DNA of 64,000 bases. Source: Bacillota bacterium (GTDB lineage Bacteria > Bacillota > Clostridia > Christensenellales > CAG-138). Every line of letters starts with the position of its first letter. Position 1 is the stretch's first letter. The position numbers and the translations under genes are program-made. The stretch covers positions 2,489-66,488 of the forward strand of contig JAEWQH010000009.1 of NCBI GenBank assembly GCA_023399275.1, written 5' to 3'. Shown here one piece after another: positions 28,837-46,253 of the stretch. The notes under the pieces are model-generated. The model did no database searches. It saw nothing but the letters and a program-made list of their open reading frames with translations, and was not told where the DNA came from.

Positions 28837-29238
28837 TGAAATCTCCCATCGCATGGTGTCGCCAGCCCAGAAAGGAACGAGTCGGGGGATCGAATGGCAT
28901 CGGCGGGATAGGCACCGGATTTGCCCCATCGTAACATTGCGCGGCTACGCGCACAAGGCGTATAAAAACGCGCATTATTGGGTATTTCCCTCTCGACGAT
29001 CGATCCCATCCCGTCGCAGCGACCGATGAAAAGCCCCTTTGGCGCGATTTCGCCGGCCCGCAGCCCGCTGAAAACGACTGTTTATCGGCAGCCGCGCTTT
29101 GCCCGCCGCCCTTTGGACTGCCGGCAATCCAACGCGCGAAAATACCCTTCTTTGGGGGATAAGCCGTTGCGCCGGCAACGCCGGATTCCATTGATGAAAG
29201 CTGCCGGTCTCTACAATCCCAAGCCGTTTTTGACGCAT

Positions 29239-29274
29239 AAAGAGGGCCTCCGAACCAAATCGGAAGCCCTCTTT
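29239..29274 (-). terminator. Stem-loop downstream of the GH31 gene
   Basis: AAAGAGGGCCTCCGA-N6-TCGGAAGCCCTCTTT, a 15-bp stem with one mismatch. There is no clean U-tract on the minus strand. Confidence 0.5.
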
Positions 29275-29296
29275 GATGATCGATTGGGTCGCAGGC

Positions 29297-31309
29297 TCAG
29301 CGGATCTCGCGCAGCCGCTCCATCACCCGCGCAATTTCGCTGTCAGCGCGGTAAAACACCGGCGGCTCGCCGATGGGCGCGGCGATCGTGACCGCGCCGC
29401 CCCTGTATGACGCACCCGACCAGAGATGCACCCAGTCGTCCTGCGGCAGGTAGAGCATGCGCGTCTGCGCCGCCTCCTCCACGACGGGCGCCACGAGGAT
29501 ATCGCGCCCCAAGAGGTATTCATACGGCTCGGTATACGCCCGCGCGTCGTCGGGATAATGCAAAAACAGCGTCCGCATGGCAGGCAGACCCGTTTCGCAG
29601 TTCTCCGCGCCGAGGGAGACGAGGTAGAGCGAGAGCGCCCGGTGGATGCGGGAAAAGCGCGAAAAGAAGGCTATGGTTTCGTCATCCGCGTCAAACTGCG
29701 TGTTTTCGTCCGGCCGGTTGCCTTCGTGCGTGCGCATTACGGGCGTAAACGCCGCGAACTCGCAGCCGCGCAGCAGCAGCTCCTTTGTGCGGTATTTGCC
29801 AAACAGCGCGGTATAGCCGCCGATATCGAAGGTGAGCATGCCAAACCCGGTCATGCCTAGCGAGAGCGCGGCGTTGATCACGCTCGGCAGCCCGTCATCC
29901 GGCGAAAAATCGACAAACTGGTCACCGGAGAACATCAGCGGAGAGTATCTCTGCGTGCCGGTCGCGCCGGAGCGGGTATAGAAACCGATCTTGCCGAGCA
30001 TGCCGCTCTCCAGCAGCGCCTCGTAGTTGAGCTTTGCCCAGAGCGTGGGCCATTCGTTGTGCGCCGAGATCGCGCTCTGTCCGGAAAAGAGCACGCAGTT
30101 GGTCGGCAGGTATTCGCCGAAATCCACCATCCAGCCGCGCAGACCCAGCGCGATCATGTTCTCCCGGATCACGCTCTTGTACCAGGTGCAGGCGGCGGGG
30201 TTCGTCAGGTCTACAAAGCCGCTGTCGAACTCGCCAAAGTCGATCAGGTAGTCCGTTCCATCCTGCTTTTTGACGAAGAAACCACGCGCCTTCGCTTCAG
30301 CGAAGAGCACGCCGCCCTCGACGAGGTAGGGGTTGATGTAGCCCATCCAGGCGATTTTGCGCGCGTCGTTTGCCGCGATGTCCTCCCGCAGAGAAGGGTA
30401 CGTCTCGCTGTTCCAGCGCCAGTCCCACTGCAGGCGCTTGCCGAAGCTCGTGACGCGCTTGCCGACCCAATCCTGCGTCCAGACCGCTGAGACGGCTGTG
30501 TCCGCGGCAAGCATGCGCTCTAGCTTGCTGCGGCAGGCTTCGGAGCCGCCCTGCATGCCCAGCAGTATGCCGTTGAACATGTATTCCGGCAGCGGCGGCT
30601 GGCGGCCGACCAGCGCGGTGAGGTCGCCCAGCAGCGCCGGATAGCTCTCCTTTGCGCCTATGGTGAGTGAAAATGCGCTCTGCCAAAGGTGGAGTCCGTG
30701 GAATCCCGCGTGGGAGAAGTCCACCTCCGCATAGTCGTAGCCGTGCAGGTGCAGATAATACAGCCGCGAGGAGACAAACGTCGCCTCGGGGTAATACGTC
30801 GTCCAGTAGTCCCCGCCGCCGCCGTCGAGCTGGTCGGCAAGAAACGTTGTGAGCGTTTTTTTGTTTCGGCCGACGCCCTGCTCCATGGTGAAGATCGGGT
30901 AGTTCCTGCCACGCAGGTCGAGGCTCGAGAACTGCTCGCCCAGGCCATAGACGTGCTCGTCCGCCTCGGCGAACACCTTGAGCCACAGCCGGTTGTAACG
31001 CGGGCTGTCGCAGCAGCCGGAGACGTCCAGCCGGCCGCCCTGTTCACGCAGGGTGAGCGTAAACGCCGCGGCATGATAGTCCTTGTAGAGGCGGATGACA
31101 ATGCCGCCCTCATCCTGCACGGCGGTAAACGCCGAAAACGGGATGCGCTCGGCGATCTCGTCCGAGATATGAAAATTGCCGTGGTGCATATCGATCGTCT
31201 CGCTGCCCACGCCGAGATAGAGCATCGGCTCCGCCAGCGTGTGGCGCAGGATCAGCCTTCCGTCGTAAAAAAGCGAAAAGCCGGCTTCGGTTCGGTCGAG
31301 TTTGAGCAT
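29297..31309 (-). CDS. yihQ: GH31 glycoside hydrolase, YihQ-like sulfoquinovosidase
   Basis: 670 aa. As far as I recall the E. coli YihQ sequence, this protein is collinear with it: GNFHISD, YGLGEQFS, MEQGVGRNK, QDWVGKRVTSFGKRLQWDWRWN (30425..30475), GWMVDFGEYLP, MRTHEGNRP, PPVFYRADSE. Confidence 0.8.
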   Translation of the reverse strand: MLKLDRTEAGFSLFYDGRLILRHTLAEPMLYLGVGSETIDMHHGNFHISDEIAERIPFSAFTAVQDEGGIVIRLYKDYHAAAFTLTLREQGGRLDVSGCCDSPRYNRLWLKVFAEADEHVYGLGEQFSSLDLRGRNYPIFTMEQGVGRNKKTLTTFLADQLDGGGGDYWTTYYPEATFVSSRLYYLHLHGYDYAEVDFSHAGFHGLHLWQSAFSLTIGAKESYPALLGDLTALVGRQPPLPEYMFNGILLGMQGGSEACRSKLERMLAADTAVSAVWTQDWVGKRVTSFGKRLQWDWRWNSETYPSLREDIAANDARKIAWMGYINPYLVEGGVLFAEAKARGFFVKKQDGTDYLIDFGEFDSGFVDLTNPAACTWYKSVIRENMIALGLRGWMVDFGEYLPTNCVLFSGQSAISAHNEWPTLWAKLNYEALLESGMLGKIGFYTRSGATGTQRYSPLMFSGDQFVDFSPDDGLPSVINAALSLGMTGFGMLTFDIGGYTALFGKYRTKELLLRGCEFAAFTPVMRTHEGNRPDENTQFDADDETIAFFSRFSRIHRALSLYLVSLGAENCETGLPAMRTLFLHYPDDARAYTEPYEYLLGRDILVAPVVEEAAQTRMLYLPQDDWVHLWSGASYRGGAVTIAAPIGEPPVFYRADSEIARVMERLREIR

Positions 31310-31324
31310 GCCTTGTTCCCTCCG

Positions 31325-32788
31325 TCAATAGATGCCTGCGAGTCTGCCGACCAGGTAGATCGCCCCGGTCATGATGGGCGCCGCTGCCAGCGTCATCACG
31401 ACGCCGCTCTTTGCCATATCCGCAATCGAAAAATATCCCGCGGAGTAGGGGATCACGCTCGTGGGCGTGCTGGTGACGAGAATGAACGCGATGTTCAGCG
31501 TCATCGCCGCCGGCATGACGATGCCGAGCGGAGAGAGGCCGAGCTGGCCCGCCACCGCAATCATGATGGGGATGACGACCGTAGCGGTGACGGTGTTGCT
31601 GGAAAGCCCCAGCTTGAGGATGGAGACGATCAGTATCACGCTGATGATCTGCACCAAAACAGGCAGCGTGCCGATGTTGCCCAGCAGCAGCATCGCAAGC
31701 CACTGCGCCGCGCCGCTTTCGTAGACGAGCATGCCCAGCGATATACCGCTGGCGATGAGCAGGATGCCGCTCCAGGAGATATCGCTCTCCACGTCCTTCC
31801 AGCGGATATCCGTCACGCCGGGGAAGAAGAAGAGGCACGCGCCGAGGATCGCCGGCAGCGAGGTCGGGATCTTGAAGCCGAGCCAGTCTCCAAGCGGTTT
31901 GCTGACGAGCCAGAGCGCGACCGTGAGCAGAAAGATCGCCATCGTGGCGCGCTCGTTGTGCGTCATCTTCGGCAGCGCGGCATATTCGCGCCTGAGGTCC
32001 TCGCTGCTGCGCCGTATGCACGGCATCTCCGGTTTGAAAAACGCCAGCAGGATCCACCACGCGGGCAGGATGAGCAGCAGCATGCAGGGCACGCCGTAGA
32101 GCATCCAGCCTGCAAAGGTGATCTCGGTGTTGAGCATGTCTCGCACAAAGCCAATGGCGAGGCTGTTTGCCCCGCCGCCCGCGGGCGAGCCCGCGCCGCC
32201 GATGAGCGCACCCCATGCCACCGCGATGAACAGCGCTTTGCCAAAGCGGCTCTTGCCGGGCTCGAGCTGCTCTTCCTCCGCGATGGAGCGCGCAAGCGGC
32301 ATCAGCATGGCCGCCGCGGCGAGCGTGGTGATCCACATGCCGATGAGCGCGCCCGCTATGAGAAAACCGAGTATGATATGGCTCGTCTTGTTGCCGGTCA
32401 GCCGCAGGATCATCATCGATATGCGCCGCCCGAGCCCGCTCTTGGTGATGGCCGCGGAGAGCGCGAGCACGCCGATGAAGAAGAGCACCGTATCGTTGCC
32501 GAAGCCGAGTTTGACCACGTTGACGAACGTATCCGCCTTGAGCGCGGCGAGCAGGATCATGCCGATCAACCCGGCGATGTGGAAGGGAATCGGTTCCGCG
32601 ATCCACAGCAGCAGGCAGAAGAATAGCACGCCGAGCACCACGCGCCCCTGCTGCGTGAGCTCCGCGCCGTCGAGCTCGAGCACGCTCTGCGGCAGGGGAA
32701 CGAGGATCACCGCAGCAAGCAGCAGCGCGGCAAGCAGCAGCCAAACGAGTCTGGCGGCGACCGGGGAAGCCGGCTTGGTCGATTTCAT
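31325..32788 (-). CDS. DASS/SLC13-type (ArsB/NhaD superfamily) anion transporter
   Basis: 487 aa and multi-TM. N-terminal …LLLWIAEPIPFHIAGLIG… and a repeated hairpin-type architecture typical of divalent-anion:Na+ symporters. Confidence 0.75.
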   Translation of the reverse strand: MKSTKPASPVAARLVWLLLAALLLAAVILVPLPQSVLELDGAELTQQGRVVLGVLFFCLLLWIAEPIPFHIAGLIGMILLAALKADTFVNVVKLGFGNDTVLFFIGVLALSAAITKSGLGRRISMMILRLTGNKTSHIILGFLIAGALIGMWITTLAAAAMLMPLARSIAEEEQLEPGKSRFGKALFIAVAWGALIGGAGSPAGGGANSLAIGFVRDMLNTEITFAGWMLYGVPCMLLLILPAWWILLAFFKPEMPCIRRSSEDLRREYAALPKMTHNERATMAIFLLTVALWLVSKPLGDWLGFKIPTSLPAILGACLFFFPGVTDIRWKDVESDISWSGILLIASGISLGMLVYESGAAQWLAMLLLGNIGTLPVLVQIISVILIVSILKLGLSSNTVTATVVIPIMIAVAGQLGLSPLGIVMPAAMTLNIAFILVTSTPTSVIPYSAGYFSIADMAKSGVVMTLAAAPIMTGAIYLVGRLAGIY

Positions 32789-32794
32789 AGCGCG

Positions 32795-33685
32795 CTACTC
32801 CCTTTTGCCGAGCGCTTGGGCAAGCAGGGTGCCCACCTCGCGCGGGCGCATGGCGACGCGCGCGCCGGCCGACTCGAGCAGACGTGTTTTGTCCGCGACC
32901 GAGCCTCTTCCTCCGGTGATGATCGCGCCGGCGTGGCCCATGCGCGTACCGGCGGGCGCGGTGCGGCCGGAGAGGAACGCAACGAGCGGTTTGGTGAACG
33001 CGCCGCGCGAGACCGCCTCGGCGACCTCCTCCTCCATCGTACCGCCCAGTTCGCCGATGATCACGACCGCGTCGGTCTCCGCATCCGCCTCAAACGCGGG
33101 TAAAAACTCCGCAAAACGCGCGCCGGGCACCGGGTCGCCGCCCACGCCGATGAGCGAGGAGACGCCAAAGCCCGCCGCAACGACCATCGCCGTGACCTCG
33201 TTGGTCAGCGAGCCGCTGCGGGTCATCACGCCGATACGCCCGGGCTGATAGACGCGCGAAATCCAGTACGGAATGCTGCCCATCATGGCTTTGCCGGGCG
33301 CGATGATGCCGCTGGTGTTGCCGCCGATGACGACTGCGTTGTTTGCCAGAGCCGCCGCGCGGATCTTCGCCTGCTCGTGCAGCGGGATGCCGTCTGCTAG
33401 GGTGACGATCAGGCGGATGCCGCTGTCGAGCGACTCCAGCACCGCATCCAGCACGAACTTTGGCGGCACGAACACCATCGCCGCATCGGCCTTATGTTCC
33501 TTTACCGCGTTTCGAACGCTATGGTAGACCGGCGCGCCGCAGCAGAGCTGCCCCTCCTTACCCGGGGTGACGCCCGCAACCACGCGGGTGCCCATATCGA
33601 CCATGTGCTGTGTCCAGAAGGCGCCCTCCTTGCCGGTGATGCCCTGTACGAGCACGCGGGTGTTTCGATCGATCAGTATGCTCAT
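32795..33685 (-). CDS. Succinyl-CoA-synthetase-like ADP-forming acyl-CoA ligase, alpha (CoA-binding) subunit
   Basis: ORF trimmed to the ATG at 33685 (MSILIDRNTRVLVQGITGKEG…) after GGGAGGGAA. Has the SucD-like catalytic-His region …GTRMGHAGAII. 4-nt overlap with the beta-subunit gene. Confidence 0.85.
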   Translation of the reverse strand: MSILIDRNTRVLVQGITGKEGAFWTQHMVDMGTRVVAGVTPGKEGQLCCGAPVYHSVRNAVKEHKADAAMVFVPPKFVLDAVLESLDSGIRLIVTLADGIPLHEQAKIRAAALANNAVVIGGNTSGIIAPGKAMMGSIPYWISRVYQPGRIGVMTRSGSLTNEVTAMVVAAGFGVSSLIGVGGDPVPGARFAEFLPAFEADAETDAVVIIGELGGTMEEEVAEAVSRGAFTKPLVAFLSGRTAPAGTRMGHAGAIITGGRGSVADKTRLLESAGARVAMRPREVGTLLAQALGKRE

Positions 33686-34809
33686 GCCCGTTCCCTCCCG
33701 CTCGCGATGGCGACGGCTTTTTTCACCGCTTCTTCCGTGTCCGAAAGCCGCTTGAGGCCGATGGGCGCGAAGATCTCGTCCACGCGTTCCTCTCCCGTGC
33801 CGCGCAGGCACGCGACGATGGGACAATCCGGCTTGAGCTCCTGCACAGCCTTGATGATGCCCTCGGCCATCACGTCCGCCCGCGCGATGGTGCCGAAGGT
33901 GACGATGAGGATCACCTTCGGTTTGTTTGCAAGGCAGAGACGCATAGCGGTGCCCGCCTTCATATAATTCGGCCCGCCGAACTCGAGATAGTTTGCAACG
34001 GTGCCGCCCTCGTAGTTCACGAGGTCATAGACGGTGTTTGCAAGCCCGGCGCCCGCGCACATCAGGCTGATATCCCCGTCGAACTCGATGTAAGGGATGC
34101 CCTCCTTCGCGGCCTCGTACTCCATATCGCTACCATAGTAAGCACGGCCCTTTTCATATGCGGCGTGGCGGAACATGGAGTTGTCGTCTATGCTCAGCTT
34201 GCCGTCGCCGGCGATTGTCGCGCCGTCCTTTGTCAGAAACAGCGGGTTGATTTCGATGAGCTCCGCGTCCATGCTGCGAAACGCCCTGTAGAGCGCGGCG
34301 CAGATCCTGCCGGTCTGCTTGAGCGCGTCGCCCCGAAGCCCGAGCCGGTAGGTGAAGTCGTTGATCTGAAACGGCTGCAGGCCCCGGTCGAGATCGATAA
34401 ACTCACGCACGATCTTCTCCGGCATATCGGCAGCGACGCGCTCGATGTCCACGCCGCCCTCGGCGCAGCCCATGAGCACGGCGCGCCCACCGGGCGCGTC
34501 CATCGTGAGCGCAAGATACAGTTCGCGCCCGATATCGACAGCCTCCTCCACCAGCACGGCGTGGAGCGAGGGCACCTCGGCAAAGTAGCGCTGCGCCAGG
34601 GACTGCGCCTCCTCCGCCGTGCGCGCGAGCTTGACCAGCCCAGCCTTTCCGCGCCCGCCGGAGAGCACCTGGCACTTGAGCACGCAGGGCAGGCCGACGG
34701 TTTCCACGGCAGCCGCCGCTTCGCCGGGGCCGGCGATCAGAACCGATTTTGGCACCGGAATGCCCGCGCCCGCGAACACCTCCTTGGCCTGGTATTCAAA
34801 CAGCTTCAT
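33682..34809 (-). CDS. Succinyl-CoA-synthetase-like ADP-forming acyl-CoA ligase, beta (ATP-grasp) subunit
   Basis: ORF trimmed to the ATG at 34809 (MKLFEYQAKEVFAGAGIPVP…), the classic SucC N-terminus. 375 aa. Confidence 0.85.
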   Translation of the reverse strand: MKLFEYQAKEVFAGAGIPVPKSVLIAGPGEAAAAVETVGLPCVLKCQVLSGGRGKAGLVKLARTAEEAQSLAQRYFAEVPSLHAVLVEEAVDIGRELYLALTMDAPGGRAVLMGCAEGGVDIERVAADMPEKIVREFIDLDRGLQPFQINDFTYRLGLRGDALKQTGRICAALYRAFRSMDAELIEINPLFLTKDGATIAGDGKLSIDDNSMFRHAAYEKGRAYYGSDMEYEAAKEGIPYIEFDGDISLMCAGAGLANTVYDLVNYEGGTVANYLEFGGPNYMKAGTAMRLCLANKPKVILIVTFGTIARADVMAEGIIKAVQELKPDCPIVACLRGTGEERVDEIFAPIGLKRLSDTEEAVKKAVAIASGRERA

Positions 34810-34828
34810 AATTCTTCTTCCTTTTATC

Positions 34829-36229
34829 TCAGCGGAGGCTCTGCAGATACGCGCCGAAGACCGCCTCGTCCGTCGGGCGGTGCGGGGTGATCGGCTCGGA
34901 GACCCAGGTGACGTTGATGAAGTGCTTGTAGGTGATGTTCTCCGTGGTGATGTTATTGCCCCATGTGCCACAGCCGAGCGTGACCGTGGAGGGCATGCCG
35001 TTGAAGAACGCGCCGCCGTTCGCCGCGGCCTGCGGCTGGCGGACGATCACGCGGCTGGTCTGCATATGCTCGCCCAGATAATCGATATAGTCGCGGTTGA
35101 AGGTATGGATGCCGCAGCTGTGTCCGCGACCCGAGTTGTCGGTCAGGCGCCTGAGGATCTCCACGCCCTCGGCAAATGCGGCGTATTTCCACAGGGTCAG
35201 CACAGGGGAAAGCTTCTCCTCTGCAAAGAGGTCCTCTTCGAGCGGCATCTCGCCCTCGACCAGCAGCATCACGGTGCTTTCCGGCACGGATATGCCGGCA
35301 AGCTCCGCGATCTTGCGCGCACTCCTGGCGACGATCTCGCCGTTGATGACGAGCGCGCCTTTCTTGTTGAGCCGCCACATCGTATCTTTGAGCTTCTGCC
35401 GCTCTGCGCCGGAGACGAGGTAGCCGCCCTCTGCGGTCAGCGCGGCGAGCATTGCTTCGTAAACGCCCTGCTGGATGACGATGGAGTTCTCGGAAGAACA
35501 GCTGGTGGCGTTGTCAAACGTCTTGCTGGTCTTGATCTTTTTTGCCGCGTCGGCGATATCCGCATCCTCCGCGATGATCTGGCAGGCGTTGCCGGGCCCT
35601 ACGCCGAAGGCCGGCCTGCCGCTGGAGTAGGCGGCCTTGACCATCGGTCCTCCGCCCGTGGCGACGACGAGGTCGATCTGGCGCATCAACTCGCCTGTGC
35701 ATTCGATGCTCGGCTCCTCGATCACCTGGATCAAATCCTCCGGCGCGCCCACTTTCTTCAGCCCCGCGCGCATGAAGTCCACCGCCAGCTTGGTGCTGGC
35801 CTTGGCGTGCGGATGCGGCGCGAAAATGACTGCGTTGCGCCCTTTTAATATGGAGACGGCGTTGCTCGACGGCGTCGCCGTAGGATTCGTAATCGGCGTC
35901 AGCGCGCCGATGACGCCGACGGGCTTCGCGTATTTCTTGATGCCGCGGGCTGCGTCCTCTTCGATGAGGCCGACGCTCTTGACGCGCTGCACGTCGTCGA
36001 TGACGCCGAGCACCTTGTTTTTGTGCTTGGTGATCTTGTCGGCCACCGAACCCATGCCGGTTTCAGAGACGGCAAGCTCGGCAAGCTTTTGGATGTTTTC
36101 GTCGTTGTAGACTTCCCAGGCGATGGCCGTACAGACGCGGTCGATCTGCTCCTGCGTGTAATCGGCGATCTTGGCTTGCGCGGTGCGCGCTTTTGAGACA
36201 AGCTGGGCGATAAGTTCCTGACTTTCCAT
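34829..36229 (-). CDS. CoA-acylating aldehyde dehydrogenase (EutE/PduP/SauS-like)
   Basis: ORF trimmed to the ATG at 36229 (MESQELIAQLVSKARTAQ…) after GGAGGG. 466 aa. …FDNATSCSSENS… carries the catalytic Cys context of acylating ALDHs. Confidence 0.8.
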   Translation of the reverse strand: MESQELIAQLVSKARTAQAKIADYTQEQIDRVCTAIAWEVYNDENIQKLAELAVSETGMGSVADKITKHKNKVLGVIDDVQRVKSVGLIEEDAARGIKKYAKPVGVIGALTPITNPTATPSSNAVSILKGRNAVIFAPHPHAKASTKLAVDFMRAGLKKVGAPEDLIQVIEEPSIECTGELMRQIDLVVATGGGPMVKAAYSSGRPAFGVGPGNACQIIAEDADIADAAKKIKTSKTFDNATSCSSENSIVIQQGVYEAMLAALTAEGGYLVSGAERQKLKDTMWRLNKKGALVINGEIVARSARKIAELAGISVPESTVMLLVEGEMPLEEDLFAEEKLSPVLTLWKYAAFAEGVEILRRLTDNSGRGHSCGIHTFNRDYIDYLGEHMQTSRVIVRQPQAAANGGAFFNGMPSTVTLGCGTWGNNITTENITYKHFINVTWVSEPITPHRPTDEAVFGAYLQSLR

Positions 36230-36293
36230 GTTGCGACCCTCCAGTACATACGGATATGATGGTTGGGGCAGGCCGTCCACCTGCGGCATGCAC

Positions 36294-36324
36294 AGTATAA
36301 CATTGATTAATAGACTAAATCAAT
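36294..36324. promoter_or_regulatory. Divergent promoter/operator region: minus-strand TTGATT-18-TATACT overlapped by the inverted repeat ATTGATT-N9-AATCAAT
   Basis: The inverted repeat at 36302..36324 covers the -35 box and spacer of the aldehyde-DH operon promoter. A plus-strand TTGATT-17-TAAACT (36324..36352) could drive the ROK gene. Confidence 0.45.
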
Positions 36325-36411
36325 TGATTTTTTCACAATTGTTTGATAAACTTGTCGCAGATGTATTTCGCAGAGCGCAGCGGCTCAAAAAACGATCCGG
36401 AGGGCAGAGGG

Positions 36412-37641
36412 ATGAATCACCGTGGCGACAACATGAGCACGGTCAAGCGCTACAACCGCAGCGTGATTCTGCGGCTGCTGCACGAGCACGGGGGCCTGAG
36501 CCGCAAGCGGATCGCGGAGGAGATGTCGCTCACGCCCGCGGCGATCACGATGATCGTCTCCGAGATGATCGGCGAAGGGCTGCTCTCCGAGGGGGCGACG
36601 CTGGAGTCGAGCGGCACCGCCGGGCGCAAGGAGATCATGGTCAACATCAACTTCAAGCGGTTCGCCGCGCTGGGCGTCTCCATCAACCTGCAGGAGGTGC
36701 TGCTCTCCGCAACCTCGCTCGACGGCGCGCTGCTCTTTTCCGAGGCGGTCCCCTGCCGGGCGGAGCTGCCGCTACAGGAAGCGCTGGAGATCGTCGGCGC
36801 GCGCCTGCCGGCGCTGATCGACGCGCACGGGATTGCGCGGGAGTCCATCGTCGGCCTCGGCGTCGGCGTGCGCGGAACGGTGGATGAAAACCGCAGCCGC
36901 AGCATCAACTCCTTCGGCGCGCTGGCGGGAACGGATCTGCCGCTGGCGGAGGCCATCGCGGGAAAGACGGGCTTCTGCACCGCGATGGACAACAACGTGC
37001 GCAGCATGTTCCGCGCGCATATGTTCTTCTCCGGCGAACAGGCCTCAAGCCTCTTTTTCATTCGCTGTGAAAAAGGCATCGGCGGGGCGATCTCGGCGGA
37101 TCACCGCATCCTCAACGGAAACAGCGGCATGTGTTCGGAGTTCGGCCACATGCCCATCGTGGAAAAGGGCGGCAAGCGCTGCCACTGCGGCAAAACGGGC
37201 TGCCTCGAGACCGTCGCCTCGCCGATGGCCATCTGCGAGGACGTCGGCAGCATCTACTCCGCCGAAGGCACGCCGCGCCTCTATGCGCTCACAGGCGGGC
37301 ATCAAAACCGCGTCACTCTGCCGCTGATCATGGATGCGGCGGCGATGGGCGACCTTGCGGTGGACGCCGTCGTGCAAAACGCGGCGAGCAAGCTCTCCAG
37401 CGCGATCAAGGCCGTGGTGTATACCCTTGACCCCGCGCGCGTAGTGCTCTACGGCAGCATCTTCGAGCTGCCGTACTATTACGAAAGTCTGCAGGCACAT
37501 CTGCGCGTAGGCTTCGACCGCGGGGACGGCGAGTATGCGCAAAAGAGCCGCTTCAACCTCCAGCTCGAGGAGAAGGCTTCCTGCGTCACCGCCATCGACG
37601 CATTCTACAAAAACGGCGGCTATCTGCAGTGTGACAAGTAG
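36412..37641 (+). CDS. ROK-family transcriptional regulator
   Basis: ATG at 36412, 7 nt after GGAGGG (an ATG at 36433 is an alternative start). Has an N-terminal wHTH (…NRSVILRLLHEHGGLSRKRIAEEMSL…) and the ROK zinc motif CHCGKTGCLE. Confidence 0.85.
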   Translation: MNHRGDNMSTVKRYNRSVILRLLHEHGGLSRKRIAEEMSLTPAAITMIVSEMIGEGLLSEGATLESSGTAGRKEIMVNINFKRFAALGVSINLQEVLLSATSLDGALLFSEAVPCRAELPLQEALEIVGARLPALIDAHGIARESIVGLGVGVRGTVDENRSRSINSFGALAGTDLPLAEAIAGKTGFCTAMDNNVRSMFRAHMFFSGEQASSLFFIRCEKGIGGAISADHRILNGNSGMCSEFGHMPIVEKGGKRCHCGKTGCLETVASPMAICEDVGSIYSAEGTPRLYALTGGHQNRVTLPLIMDAAAMGDLAVDAVVQNAASKLSSAIKAVVYTLDPARVVLYGSIFELPYYYESLQAHLRVGFDRGDGEYAQKSRFNLQLEEKASCVTAIDAFYKNGGYLQCDK

Positions 37642-45071: not shown

Positions 45072-46253
45072 CTAGATCGCGCGTTCGTAGATCGCTCTGG
45101 CATCCGCTTCGAAGATTTTCGTCAACCCGCCGACGGGGCGTTCTTCCCCATCCGGCCCATGGGTGACCGTGCGCGCCATATCCGCAATCTGCGCCGGGTC
45201 GACGCCGAGCTTGATCAGCCGGCTCGGCAGCCCCATGCGCGAATAAAACGTCTCGAGCGCAGAGATGCCGCTTTCGATGGTGGCGGCGACGGCCATCGGC
45301 TGGTCCTCCTCCCCCATGACGCGCACGGCAAACGCATAAAATCGAGCGGGATTCACGCGCCAGACATGACGCATCCACGCAGGGGTCAGAACCGCCAGCC
45401 CTGCGCCGTGGGTCACGCCGAAACGCGCGGTCAGCTCGTGGTCGAGCTTGTGGCAGGCCCAGTCCTGCTCCCGCCCCACGCCGAGCATGTTGTTGTGCGC
45501 AATGGTACCACAGAGCGCAACCTGACACCACGCGTCGTAGTCTGCCGGGTTTGCGACCACCTTTTCGCCGAACGCGAGCAGCGTGCGCAGCGTCGCCTCG
45601 CTCAGCGCATCGGAGAGTTCGGTGTGCTCCGTATTGGAAAAATACCGCTCGAAGATGTGGCTCATCATATCCGCAACGCCGGATGCGATCTGAAACCTTG
45701 GTATGGTTTCAAACAGCGTCGGGTCGATGACGGAGAGCAGCGGGCGGTTCCACTCGCGATTGTAGCCGCATTTCTTTTGCGTTTGATAGTTGCTCAGCAC
45801 CGTGCTGTTGCTCGCCTCGCTGCCTGCTGCGGGAAACGTGAGCACGCACGCCACGGGATATGCGCCCGCGGTCTCGAGGTTTTTTTCGTATATGTCCCAG
45901 ATATCCAGGTCGGGGTTCTTCAGCCCCAGCGCAATGCCCTTGCCGGAGTCGATGACCGACCCGCCGCCGACGCAGAGTACAAGCTCCACCCCTTCGCGCC
46001 GGCAGAGCGCGATGCCCTCACGCACCAACTCGACATCGGGATTTGGAATCACGCCGCCGAGGGAAACGAATGCGACGCCGGCGGCTGTGAGGGAATCCGT
46101 CACACGCCGGAGCAGGCCATTTTTCACCACGCGGTCGCTGCCATAGTGCACAAGCACCTTCTTCGCCAGCGGGGCGATGTGGGCGCCGATCTGATCCGCC
46201 GTACCCTTACCGAAGATCAGGCGCGTCGGGCTGTAAAACTCAAAATTCAGCAT
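45072..46253 (-). CDS. Iron-containing (group III) alcohol dehydrogenase, butanol-DH/YqhD-like
   Basis: 393 aa. MLNFEFYSPTRLIFGKG… N-terminus, GGGSVIDSGK NAD(P)-binding motif and a His-rich metal site. Confidence 0.85.
   Translation of the reverse strand: MLNFEFYSPTRLIFGKGTADQIGAHIAPLAKKVLVHYGSDRVVKNGLLRRVTDSLTAAGVAFVSLGGVIPNPDVELVREGIALCRREGVELVLCVGGGSVIDSGKGIALGLKNPDLDIWDIYEKNLETAGAYPVACVLTFPAAGSEASNSTVLSNYQTQKKCGYNREWNRPLLSVIDPTLFETIPRFQIASGVADMMSHIFERYFSNTEHTELSDALSEATLRTLLAFGEKVVANPADYDAWCQVALCGTIAHNNMLGVGREQDWACHKLDHELTARFGVTHGAGLAVLTPAWMRHVWRVNPARFYAFAVRVMGEEDQPMAVAATIESGISALETFYSRMGLPSRLIKLGVDPAQIADMARTVTHGPDGEERPVGGLTKIFEADARAIYERAI

Follow-up and report, generated by a model that had tools for sequence, protein, structure and literature searches.

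The subject of this analysis is a five-gene operon on the minus strand of a 64,000-nucleotide stretch of DNA (the window) from an uncultured Christensenellaceae-like Clostridia bacterium (GenBank assembly GCA_023399275.1, contig JAEWQH010000009.1), which appears to serve the degradation of sulfoquinovose (SQ). The stretch lies on contig C52 of a 128-contig metagenome-assembled genome (MAG) that is 94.9% complete with 2.1% contamination. Open reading frame listing, family scans and start-codon inspection place the genes in one tightly packed operon (36229..29297) encoding, in order, a CoA-acylating aldehyde dehydrogenase (ALDH; 36229..34829, 466 aa), the ATP-grasp, SucC-like beta subunit of a ligase (34809..33682, 375 aa, N-terminus MKLFEYQAKE), its CoA-binding, SucD-like alpha subunit (33685..32795, 296 aa), a DASS-family anion carrier (32788..31325, 487 aa) and a YihQ-type sulfoquinovosidase of glycoside hydrolase family 31 (GH31; 31309..29297, 670 aa). 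All five genes of the single operon outlined in a preliminary description of this DNA are present. The intergenic gaps, from ALDH to GH31, are 19, -4, 6, and 15 nt, the negative value being an ATGA overlap that sets the ATG of ligase alpha on the stop codon of ligase beta and through which alpha is translationally coupled to beta. The ALDH gene starts at ATG 36229, preceded by a GGAGGG ribosome-binding site; ATG 36289 is not the start because it lies inside the -10 box of the promoter described below.

The GH31 protein scores 873.8 bits against the NCBIfam equivalog NF007746 (PRK10426, YihQ; cut-off 553), spanning model positions 13-680 of 683, and aligns without gaps to E. coli YihQ (PDB 5AED; offset +9, E = 6e-226) at 50% identity over 668 aa. 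The YihQ residues Q262, Q288, R301, W304, D405, D472, and Y508 are identical in seven of seven cases. In the protein's own numbering the QQRWY sulfonate-recognition residues are Q253, Q279, R292, W295, and Y499, while D396 (in GWMVDFGEY) and D463 (in FSGDQF) align gaplessly with D405, the catalytic nucleophile of E. coli YihQ, and with D472, its acid/base. The motif QDWVGKRVTSFGKRLQW with Q-x12-R-x2-W spacing lies on the minus strand at exactly the position where the preliminary description had recorded it (30425..30475) and corresponds to Q288...R301..W304 of E. coli YihQ; GWMVDFGEYLP, which it had assigned to the nucleophile region, occupies residues 392-402. By sequence, then, the protein is a YihQ-type sulfoquinovosidase, and it is predicted to hydrolyze sulfoquinovosides. 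A second GH31 gene, beside a gene for a GPH-family transporter and split between contigs C65 (26-1594) and C106 (33244-33753), provided an internal control (in the sister locus L018 it lies at 713-2815). It retains both catalytic aspartates and has P, W, and F at the positions of YihQ R301, W304, and Y508. It was rejected as an additional sulfoquinovosidase, failing the R and Y signature positions, and is probably an ordinary alpha-glycosidase because the sulfonate-binding Arg and Tyr are absent.

Among NCBIfam models the ALDH best matches that of SauS, the acylating sulfoacetaldehyde dehydrogenase (NF047625), scoring 546.9 bits under a cut-off of 600; of solved structures the closest is 8CEI, an acetylating succinate-semialdehyde dehydrogenase. 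The operon enzyme shares 58% identity with the ALDH of the Bilophila wadsworthia SauS locus and 66% with genes of the Izimaplasma/Mariniplasma clusters, and Cys244, within TFDNATSCSSE, is invariant among 60 homologues. By context the enzyme is SauS/SqwD-like and is not a strict SauS equivalog. Contig C20 of the same genome (~10.9-20 kb, L106) carries a second SauS-like acylating ALDH (467.8 bits on the SauS model, 46% identical to the operon enzyme), located as an unusual insertion inside a row of shikimate genes (aroE-aroA-aroC-ALDH-aroD) that is followed by genes for an HMG-CoA-lyase-like protein and an acetolactate-synthase-like, thiamine pyrophosphate-dependent enzyme.

The ligase encoded next to the ALDH combines a beta subunit with Pfam ATP-grasp_2 and Ligase_CoA domains and an alpha subunit with CoA_binding and Ligase_CoA domains, the latter bearing the phosphohistidine motif GHAGA at residues 250-254. 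Between beta and E. coli SucC identity is 38%, as against 56% with the B. wadsworthia SauC locus; on the SucC models beta scores 315.1 and 311 bits, under the cut-offs of 370 and 376. Alpha is 70% identical to the SauD locus and reaches 329.2 and 320 bits against SucD models with cut-offs of 336 and 353. The subunits thus appear to be SqwK/SauC-like (beta) and SqwL/SauD-like (alpha), and a CoA-acylating ALDH adjoining a two-subunit SucCD-type ligase with its catalytic histidine is what the sulfoacetate-forming variant of the sulfo-transketolase (sulfo-TK) pathway requires (SqwD/SqwKL). No other SucCD-like enzyme was found in the genome. The preliminary description had compared the pair with SauS/SauT run in reverse; the comparison is apt for SauS and fails for the AMP-forming SauT, the proper characterized counterpart being the ADP-forming SauCD of B. 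wadsworthia, together with SauS and the DASS carrier SauI (PMC10413351).

A scan with ligase beta, taking one genome per species, yielded 80 loci, which were searched with 14 proteins of the genome under study. A close ALDH (at least 55% identity) is present in 61 of them and a DASS gene, adjoining the ALDH and ligase genes, in 52; at least two of SqwG, SqwH, and SqwI are encoded within 10 kb of the ligase in 33, and DASS and SqwGHI occur together in 27. Many of the remaining ligase loci, those lacking SqwGHI nearby, are short contigs. The arrangement SqwGHI-ALDH-beta-alpha-DASS is found in Spirochaetota, Verrucomicrobiota, Halanaerobiales, and other loci, and linkage to yihQ or SqwGHI recurs across many phyla. 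In a tree of ligase beta (IQ-TREE quick, rooted on E. coli SucC) the operon protein falls inside a 68-row clade with an SH-aLRT of 99 that takes in all copies linked to transketolase genes together with the B. wadsworthia locus and the Acholeplasmataceae/Izimaplasma clusters; outside it stands a Neobacillus/Desulfosporosinus group whose ALDH is only ~41% identical. The sequences therefore group the ligase with genes of sulfoacetate context and not with SucC, the references being the SauC locus and the Acholeplasmataceae clusters and not SqwK itself.

These placements bear on a reading in which the operon serves dicarboxylate metabolism, the carrier taking up succinate, the ligase acting as succinyl-CoA synthetase and the ALDH as a CoA-dependent succinate-semialdehyde dehydrogenase, with yihQ adjacent by chance. 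The structural match of the ALDH and the typical dicarboxylate substrates of DASS carriers agree with it, and the ligase subunits miss the SucC and SucD cut-offs only narrowly, but beta is closer to the SauC locus than to E. coli SucC and belongs to the sulfonate-context clade. B. wadsworthia SauCD was inactive on the other sulfonic and carboxylic acids tested save for residual activity with 3-sulfopropanoate (20%) and malonate (7%) (PMC10413351), which also counts against such a role, as do the linkage to yihQ or SqwGHI in many phyla and the score of only 80 bits that the one iron-containing alcohol dehydrogenase (Fe-ADH) of the window attains on the 4-hydroxybutyrate dehydrogenase model (cut-off 500). 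A dicarboxylate function is therefore very unlikely.

Consistent with the earlier statement that the window lacks a sulfosugar-cleaving core, the domains Transketolase_N, Transketolase_C, LacAB_rpiB, TAL_FSA, GlcNAc_2-epim, and PfkB have no match on contig C52. The suggestion that the core might lie elsewhere, to be sought by searching the genome for SQ isomerase and transketolase genes, proved correct. A whole-genome family search showed that contig C17 ends in a split Transketolase_N gene and that contig C103 opens with a Transketolase_C fragment, behind which lies a LacAB_rpiB gene. These two contig ends (that of C17 as reverse complement) have 17 nt in common, and joining them restores a 315-aa SqwH frame whose residues 1-311 align gaplessly with orthologues (70% identity to that of L021). 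The joined sequence reads sugar-binding protein (SBP)-permease-permease-SqwG-SqwH-SqwI (RpiB-like)-SftI/SqvD-like isomerase-DUF4867 (SftX), that is, an ABC importer together with SqwG, SqwH, SqwI, an SftI-like isomerase, and DUF4867. The sole NCBIfam match of the isomerase is NF048012 (sulfoquinovose isomerase SftI), at 198 bits. The genome also contains a full-length transketolase and two RpiB genes.

In relatives the core is physically linked to the operon. Seven loci, mostly from Christensenella/Christensenellaceae MAGs (L012-L018; ligase identity 85-89%), share the order ROK regulator | ALDH-beta-alpha-DASS-YihQ | convergent Gfo/Idh/MocA, NagB-like, and NagA-like genes | SBP-permeases, which matches C52 followed by C17 and so places both halves of the pathway in one locus in these sister MAGs. 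A Clostridia MAG (L021) has a contiguous ALDH-beta-alpha-DASS-YihQ-SBP-permeases run followed by SqwG-SqwH-SqwI up to the end of the locus, and an Oscillospiraceae MAG (L024) the same run followed by SqwI-SftI. The preliminary description had entertained, as an alternative, a stand-alone module for cross-fed C2/C3 sulfonates. In such a module YihQ would release SQ for the community and the ALDH and ligase would gain ATP from sulfoacetaldehyde or isethionate supplied by others, the bacterium having no sulfoglycolysis of its own. Separation of operon and core onto different contigs would fit such scavenging, as would the finding of a close ligase orthologue in only 1 of the 150 family genomes sampled. 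With a complete sulfo-TK core in the same bin, adjacent in sister genomes, and no isethionate dehydrogenase linked to the operon (the Fe-ADH of the window is YqhD-like, at 77 bits to SarD), a stand-alone module is not needed, and we regard it as extremely unlikely.

Other upper branches were considered and set aside. By tblastn, E. coli YihR, YihS, YihT, and YihU found nothing in the genome, and YihV gave weak PfkB-family matches (26-28%), none of them on C52. Neither transaldolase (PF00923) nor a YihS-type isomerase was found in the genome, and phosphoketolase (PF09364, XFP) was likewise not found; sulfo-EMP (Embden-Meyerhof-Parnas-type) and sulfo-transaldolase (sulfo-TAL) routes and a phosphoketolase link were rejected accordingly. 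An isethionate-forming lower branch was also rejected: the Fe-ADH of the window is not SqwF/SarD-like (77 bits to SarD, cut-off 700), no SqwF-like gene is linked to the operon, and no TauE was found in the genome. The Fe-ADH gene (45072..46253) stands among genes for asparagine-, serine-, and arginine-tRNA ligases.

The same enzyme families and logic as in the operon occur in HpfX/HpfYZ (PMC11489063), so that the ALDH-ligase pair could instead gain ATP by oxidizing 3-sulfopropionaldehyde to 3-sulfopropionate, downstream of a pathway forming 2,3-dihydroxypropane-1-sulfonate (DHPS) and of a glycyl-radical DHPS dehydratase. On contig C91 (~12.4-19.8 kb, L094) there are genes for an activase, for DeoR and AraC regulators, and for two glycyl-radical enzymes, one of 784 aa and the other of at least 754 aa. 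These two enzymes score 541-561 bits on the HpsG/HpfG models, far under the cut-off of 1000; they reach only the generic PFL2/glycerol-dehydratase family and are unlinked to the operon. The genome offers no sulfolactaldehyde or DHPS route that could be found (neither transaldolase nor YihS, YihT, or YihU homologues), a glycyl-radical enzyme lies near the ligase in 1 of the 80 loci as against 33 with SqwGHI, and no Enterococcus locus is among the 80 closest. The probability that this is an HpfX/HpfYZ-type system is accordingly very small.

The DASS carrier matches TIGR00785 with 226.9 bits, above the cut-off of 198.6, and Pfam Na_sulph_symp with 184 bits. Its identity with B. wadsworthia SauI amounts to 41%, and the nearest structure is VcINDY, of whose two hairpin-tip SNT motifs the second is kept and the first reads TTL. 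Across the clade of sulfoacetate-linked DASS proteins the first-SNT site reads TN, TD, TT, or TA, and the second SNT is conserved. Because no TauE/SafE-family (SqwE-type) protein was found in the genome, the SauI-like carrier is the candidate for sulfoacetate export, a role that its context predicts.

The opposite direction is realized in B. wadsworthia, whose locus (L090) comprises TctA-TctB-TctC, a DASS gene, an ALDH gene, and two ligase subunit genes, that is, the published SauXYZ-SauI-SauS-SauCD layout (PMC10413351). Were the homologous genes used here as they are there, the carrier would import sulfoacetate and the ligase would spend ATP for its reduction to sulfoacetaldehyde, serving desulfonation or an electron sink. 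Candidates for desulfonation were rejected. The NIR_SIR (sulfite reductase) domain has no match in the 94.9%-complete genome, no Xsc was accepted (best match in the genome 263 bits, cut-off 676), and the glycyl-radical enzymes of C91, being only generic PFL2 members, could not be assigned as isethionate or DHPS sulfolyases. Such reductive use is therefore unlikely and excretion the parsimonious reading; the genes moreover belong to the same operon as yihQ and, in relatives, as SqwGHI, and the organism belongs to a fermentative Clostridia lineage. Taken together, we find operation in the Bilophila direction highly improbable.

We consider it highly likely that the operon provides the entry step and the energy-conserving lower branch of a sulfoacetate-forming sulfo-TK pathway for SQ. 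The branch named in the preliminary description, a sulfoquinovosidase combined with conversion of sulfoacetaldehyde via sulfoacetyl-CoA to sulfoacetate with ATP gain, is supported by the genes, the synteny, and the ligase clade. Carrying this reading are the observed gene content, the conservation of residues, the core genes elsewhere in the genome, synteny over some 80 genomes, and the position of the ligase. In the scheme proposed, for which substrates, direction of flux, DASS-mediated export, and regulation are predictions, the ABC system of C17 would take up SQ glycosides, sulfoquinovosyl glycerol for example, and the sulfoquinovosidase of the operon would hydrolyze them. The SftI/SqvD-like isomerase (C103) would turn SQ into sulfofructose, and the split transketolase SqwGH (C17/C103), with the RpiB-like SqwI (C103), would move two C2 units onto glyceraldehyde-3-phosphate, giving two xylulose-5-phosphate and sulfoacetaldehyde. 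The acylating ALDH would then convert sulfoacetaldehyde, CoA, and NAD(P)+ to sulfoacetyl-CoA, from which the SucCD-like ligase would form sulfoacetate, CoA, and ATP with ADP and Pi; the DASS carrier would export the sulfoacetate, and repression of the operon probably comes from the divergent ROK regulator, acting at a conserved block over the -35 and -10 elements.

Several points weigh against this scheme. The ALDH does not reach the SauS equivalog cut-off (547 versus 600 bits), and the SauS model alone is unspecific for substrate because the C20 paralogue also attains 468 bits. The SftI-like isomerase is far under the SftI cut-off (198 versus 700), and neither transaldolase nor phosphoketolase was found in the 94.9%-complete MAG to process the xylulose-5-phosphate that the sulfo-TK reactions would deliver. 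That C52, C17, and C103 belong to one organism is a result of binning, though the same genes are linked in sister genomes. The direction of the DASS carrier, finally, is suggested here by context only, because SauI of B. wadsworthia has been proposed as an importer.

Divergent to the ALDH gene lies a plus-strand gene for a ROK-family (NagC/Mlc-like) regulator with an N-terminal winged helix (36412..37641). Its frame is open from 36343, and translation probably begins at 36412 with MNHRGDN; in relatives the ROK genes preserve both this MNHRGD start and its ribosome-binding site. The protein scores 120 bits on Pfam ROK, with additional MarR/HTH_24 matches, and 156 and 131 bits on the NCBIfam models for NagC and Mlc, both below cut-off. 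The same divergent gene stands beside the ALDH gene in L012-L019 (78-90% identity) and L021 (54%). A promoter scan and a palindrome search located a sigma-70-like promoter and a candidate operator block on the minus strand at 36294..36333. The promoter consists of the -35 element TTGATT (36323..36318), an 18-nt spacer, and the TG-extended -10 element TATACT (36299..36294), and it explains the upper coordinate, 36324, given in the preliminary description. It overlaps a perfect palindrome, AAATCAATTGATTT, and an imperfect inverted repeat, TGATTTAGTCTATTAATCA. A 40-nt block, AAAAAATCAATTGATTTAGTCTATTAATCAATGTTATACT (36333..36294), is identical in six of the eight loci L012-L019, with one substitution each in L015 and L019, and is recognizable in L021. 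Since it is conserved while the intergenic DNA flanking it varies among L012-L019, and includes the palindrome, it makes a good candidate for the ROK operator. An identical string of 12 nt, AAACAATTGTGA, occurs upstream of both the ALDH gene and the SBP gene of this genome; as a shared operator of the two loci it was given little weight, not being conserved at the ALDH locus of relatives.

At the other end, a terminator-like hairpin (29274..29239, minus strand) begins 23 nt past the yihQ stop codon. In the predicted RNA fold of 29100-29310 a stem of 15 bp (AAAGAGGGCUUCCGA / UCGGAGGCCCUCUUU) encloses a loop of 6 nt, AUG follows, and the hairpin would close the operon. A simple terminator scan did not list this hairpin, probably because its U-run lies partly within the stem.

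The module from the ROK gene to yihQ (29297-37641) adjoins an unrelated tubulin-like operon, which lies downstream of yihQ, and a GGDEF gene in this genome; in the sister loci L012-L018 its neighbors are the Gfo trio and genes homologous to contig C106. A mobile element as the cause of this difference was dropped, no meaningful direct or inverted repeats having been found flanking 28.5-38.5 kb, and either a rearrangement or an assembly artefact may account for it. The trio itself, a convergent set encoding a NagA-like amidohydrolase/deacetylase, a NagB-like deaminase/isomerase, and a Gfo/Idh/MocA oxidoreductase, lies at 4930-8105 of C17 in the genome under study and at ~15.6-18.8 kb in L012-L018; in every sister Christensenellaceae locus it separates yihQ from the ABC-importer/SqwGHI half. 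The sulfoacetate or sulfo-TK modules of L024, L038, L028, L030, and L072 likewise have NagB-like homologues (34-59%) beside them. The trio may give a modified sulfosugar an additional point of entry. A more speculative and rather doubtful proposal would see two undescribed additions to the pathway: a DASS clade with a degenerate first Na+-site motif that replaces the TauE-type exporter and couples sulfoacetate efflux to ion-gradient formation beyond the ATP yielded by the ligase, and the NagA/NagB/Gfo trio feeding a second, amino- or N-acetyl-substituted sulfosugar into sulfofructose.

Of the known systems, the sulfo-TK variant that ends in sulfoacetate, described by Chu et al. (2023, Appl. 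Environ. Microbiol. 89:e0061723) and reported for Spirochaetes, Firmicutes, and Tenericutes (as cited in PMC12890257, PMC11659671, PMC11489063), comes closest. The genome shares with that variant the SQ isomerase, split transketolase, RpiB-like isomerase, acylating ALDH, and ADP-forming ligase. It is distinguished by a division into two loci, one with yihQ and the lower branch (C52) and one with the importer and core (C17+C103), yihQ being in an operon with the lower branch and not with the core. The Acholeplasmataceae/Izimaplasma clusters belong to the same ligase clade, with identities of 66% for the ALDH, 57% for ligase beta, 69% for alpha, and 57-60% for SqwG; the Mollicutes loci retrieved are without a DASS gene, whereas here a DASS sulfonate carrier is present and a TauE/SqwE-family protein was not found in the genome.

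Liu et al. (2023, PMC10413351) characterized SauS and SauCD of B. wadsworthia in biochemical work with sulfoacetate and sulfoacetaldehyde. The same three protein families recur in that organism, ordered DASS-ALDH-ligase beta-ligase alpha, with identities of 41/58/56/70%. In B. wadsworthia the pathway runs reductively at the cost of ATP and supplies isethionate sulfolyase and sulfite respiration, with SauI as the proposed importer (PMC10413351), whereas in the present genome desulfonation machinery was not found, a sulfoquinovosidase shares the operon, and flux would be oxidative with export. With E. coli YihQ (GH31; 5AED/5OHT) the sulfoquinovosidase has the same nucleophile, acid/base, and QQRWY pocket, set in a sulfo-TK and not a sulfo-EMP gene complement. 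The HpfX/HpfYZ system of Enterococcus gilvus, compared by its description, likewise couples an acylating ALDH to an ADP-forming ligase and draws ATP from a sulfonated aldehyde, but it needs a sulfo-TAL route and the glycyl-radical HpfG, neither of which is supported here (PMC11489063). The isethionate-forming sulfo-TK clusters of Clostridium sp. MSTE9 and of rumen Oscillospiraceae, Caproiciproducens, and Sphaerochaetaceae (PMC13219744) also have SqwGH, SqwI, SftI, DUF4867 (SftX), and SmoFGH-like ABC importers; in these SqwF reduces sulfoacetaldehyde and SqwE exports isethionate, in place of which the present genome has the ALDH-ligase pair and the DASS carrier.

The pathway has already been published, and its known biochemistry is unchanged by the operon described here. 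No publication linking Christensenellaceae to SQ degradation was found in the literature searched. Sulfoquinovose is produced on a gigaton scale, and the sulfonate excreted by a primary degrader decides which secondary bacteria make sulfite or H2S, sulfoacetate being used, for example, by Bilophila. A sulfo-TK pathway split over separate loci, as in this genome, would be scored as incomplete by cluster surveys that require contiguity. The operon would add a Christensenellaceae-like Clostridia lineage to the producers of sulfoacetate, and, with one carrier among the 150 genomes sampled, the pathway appears to be a rare accessory trait in the family.

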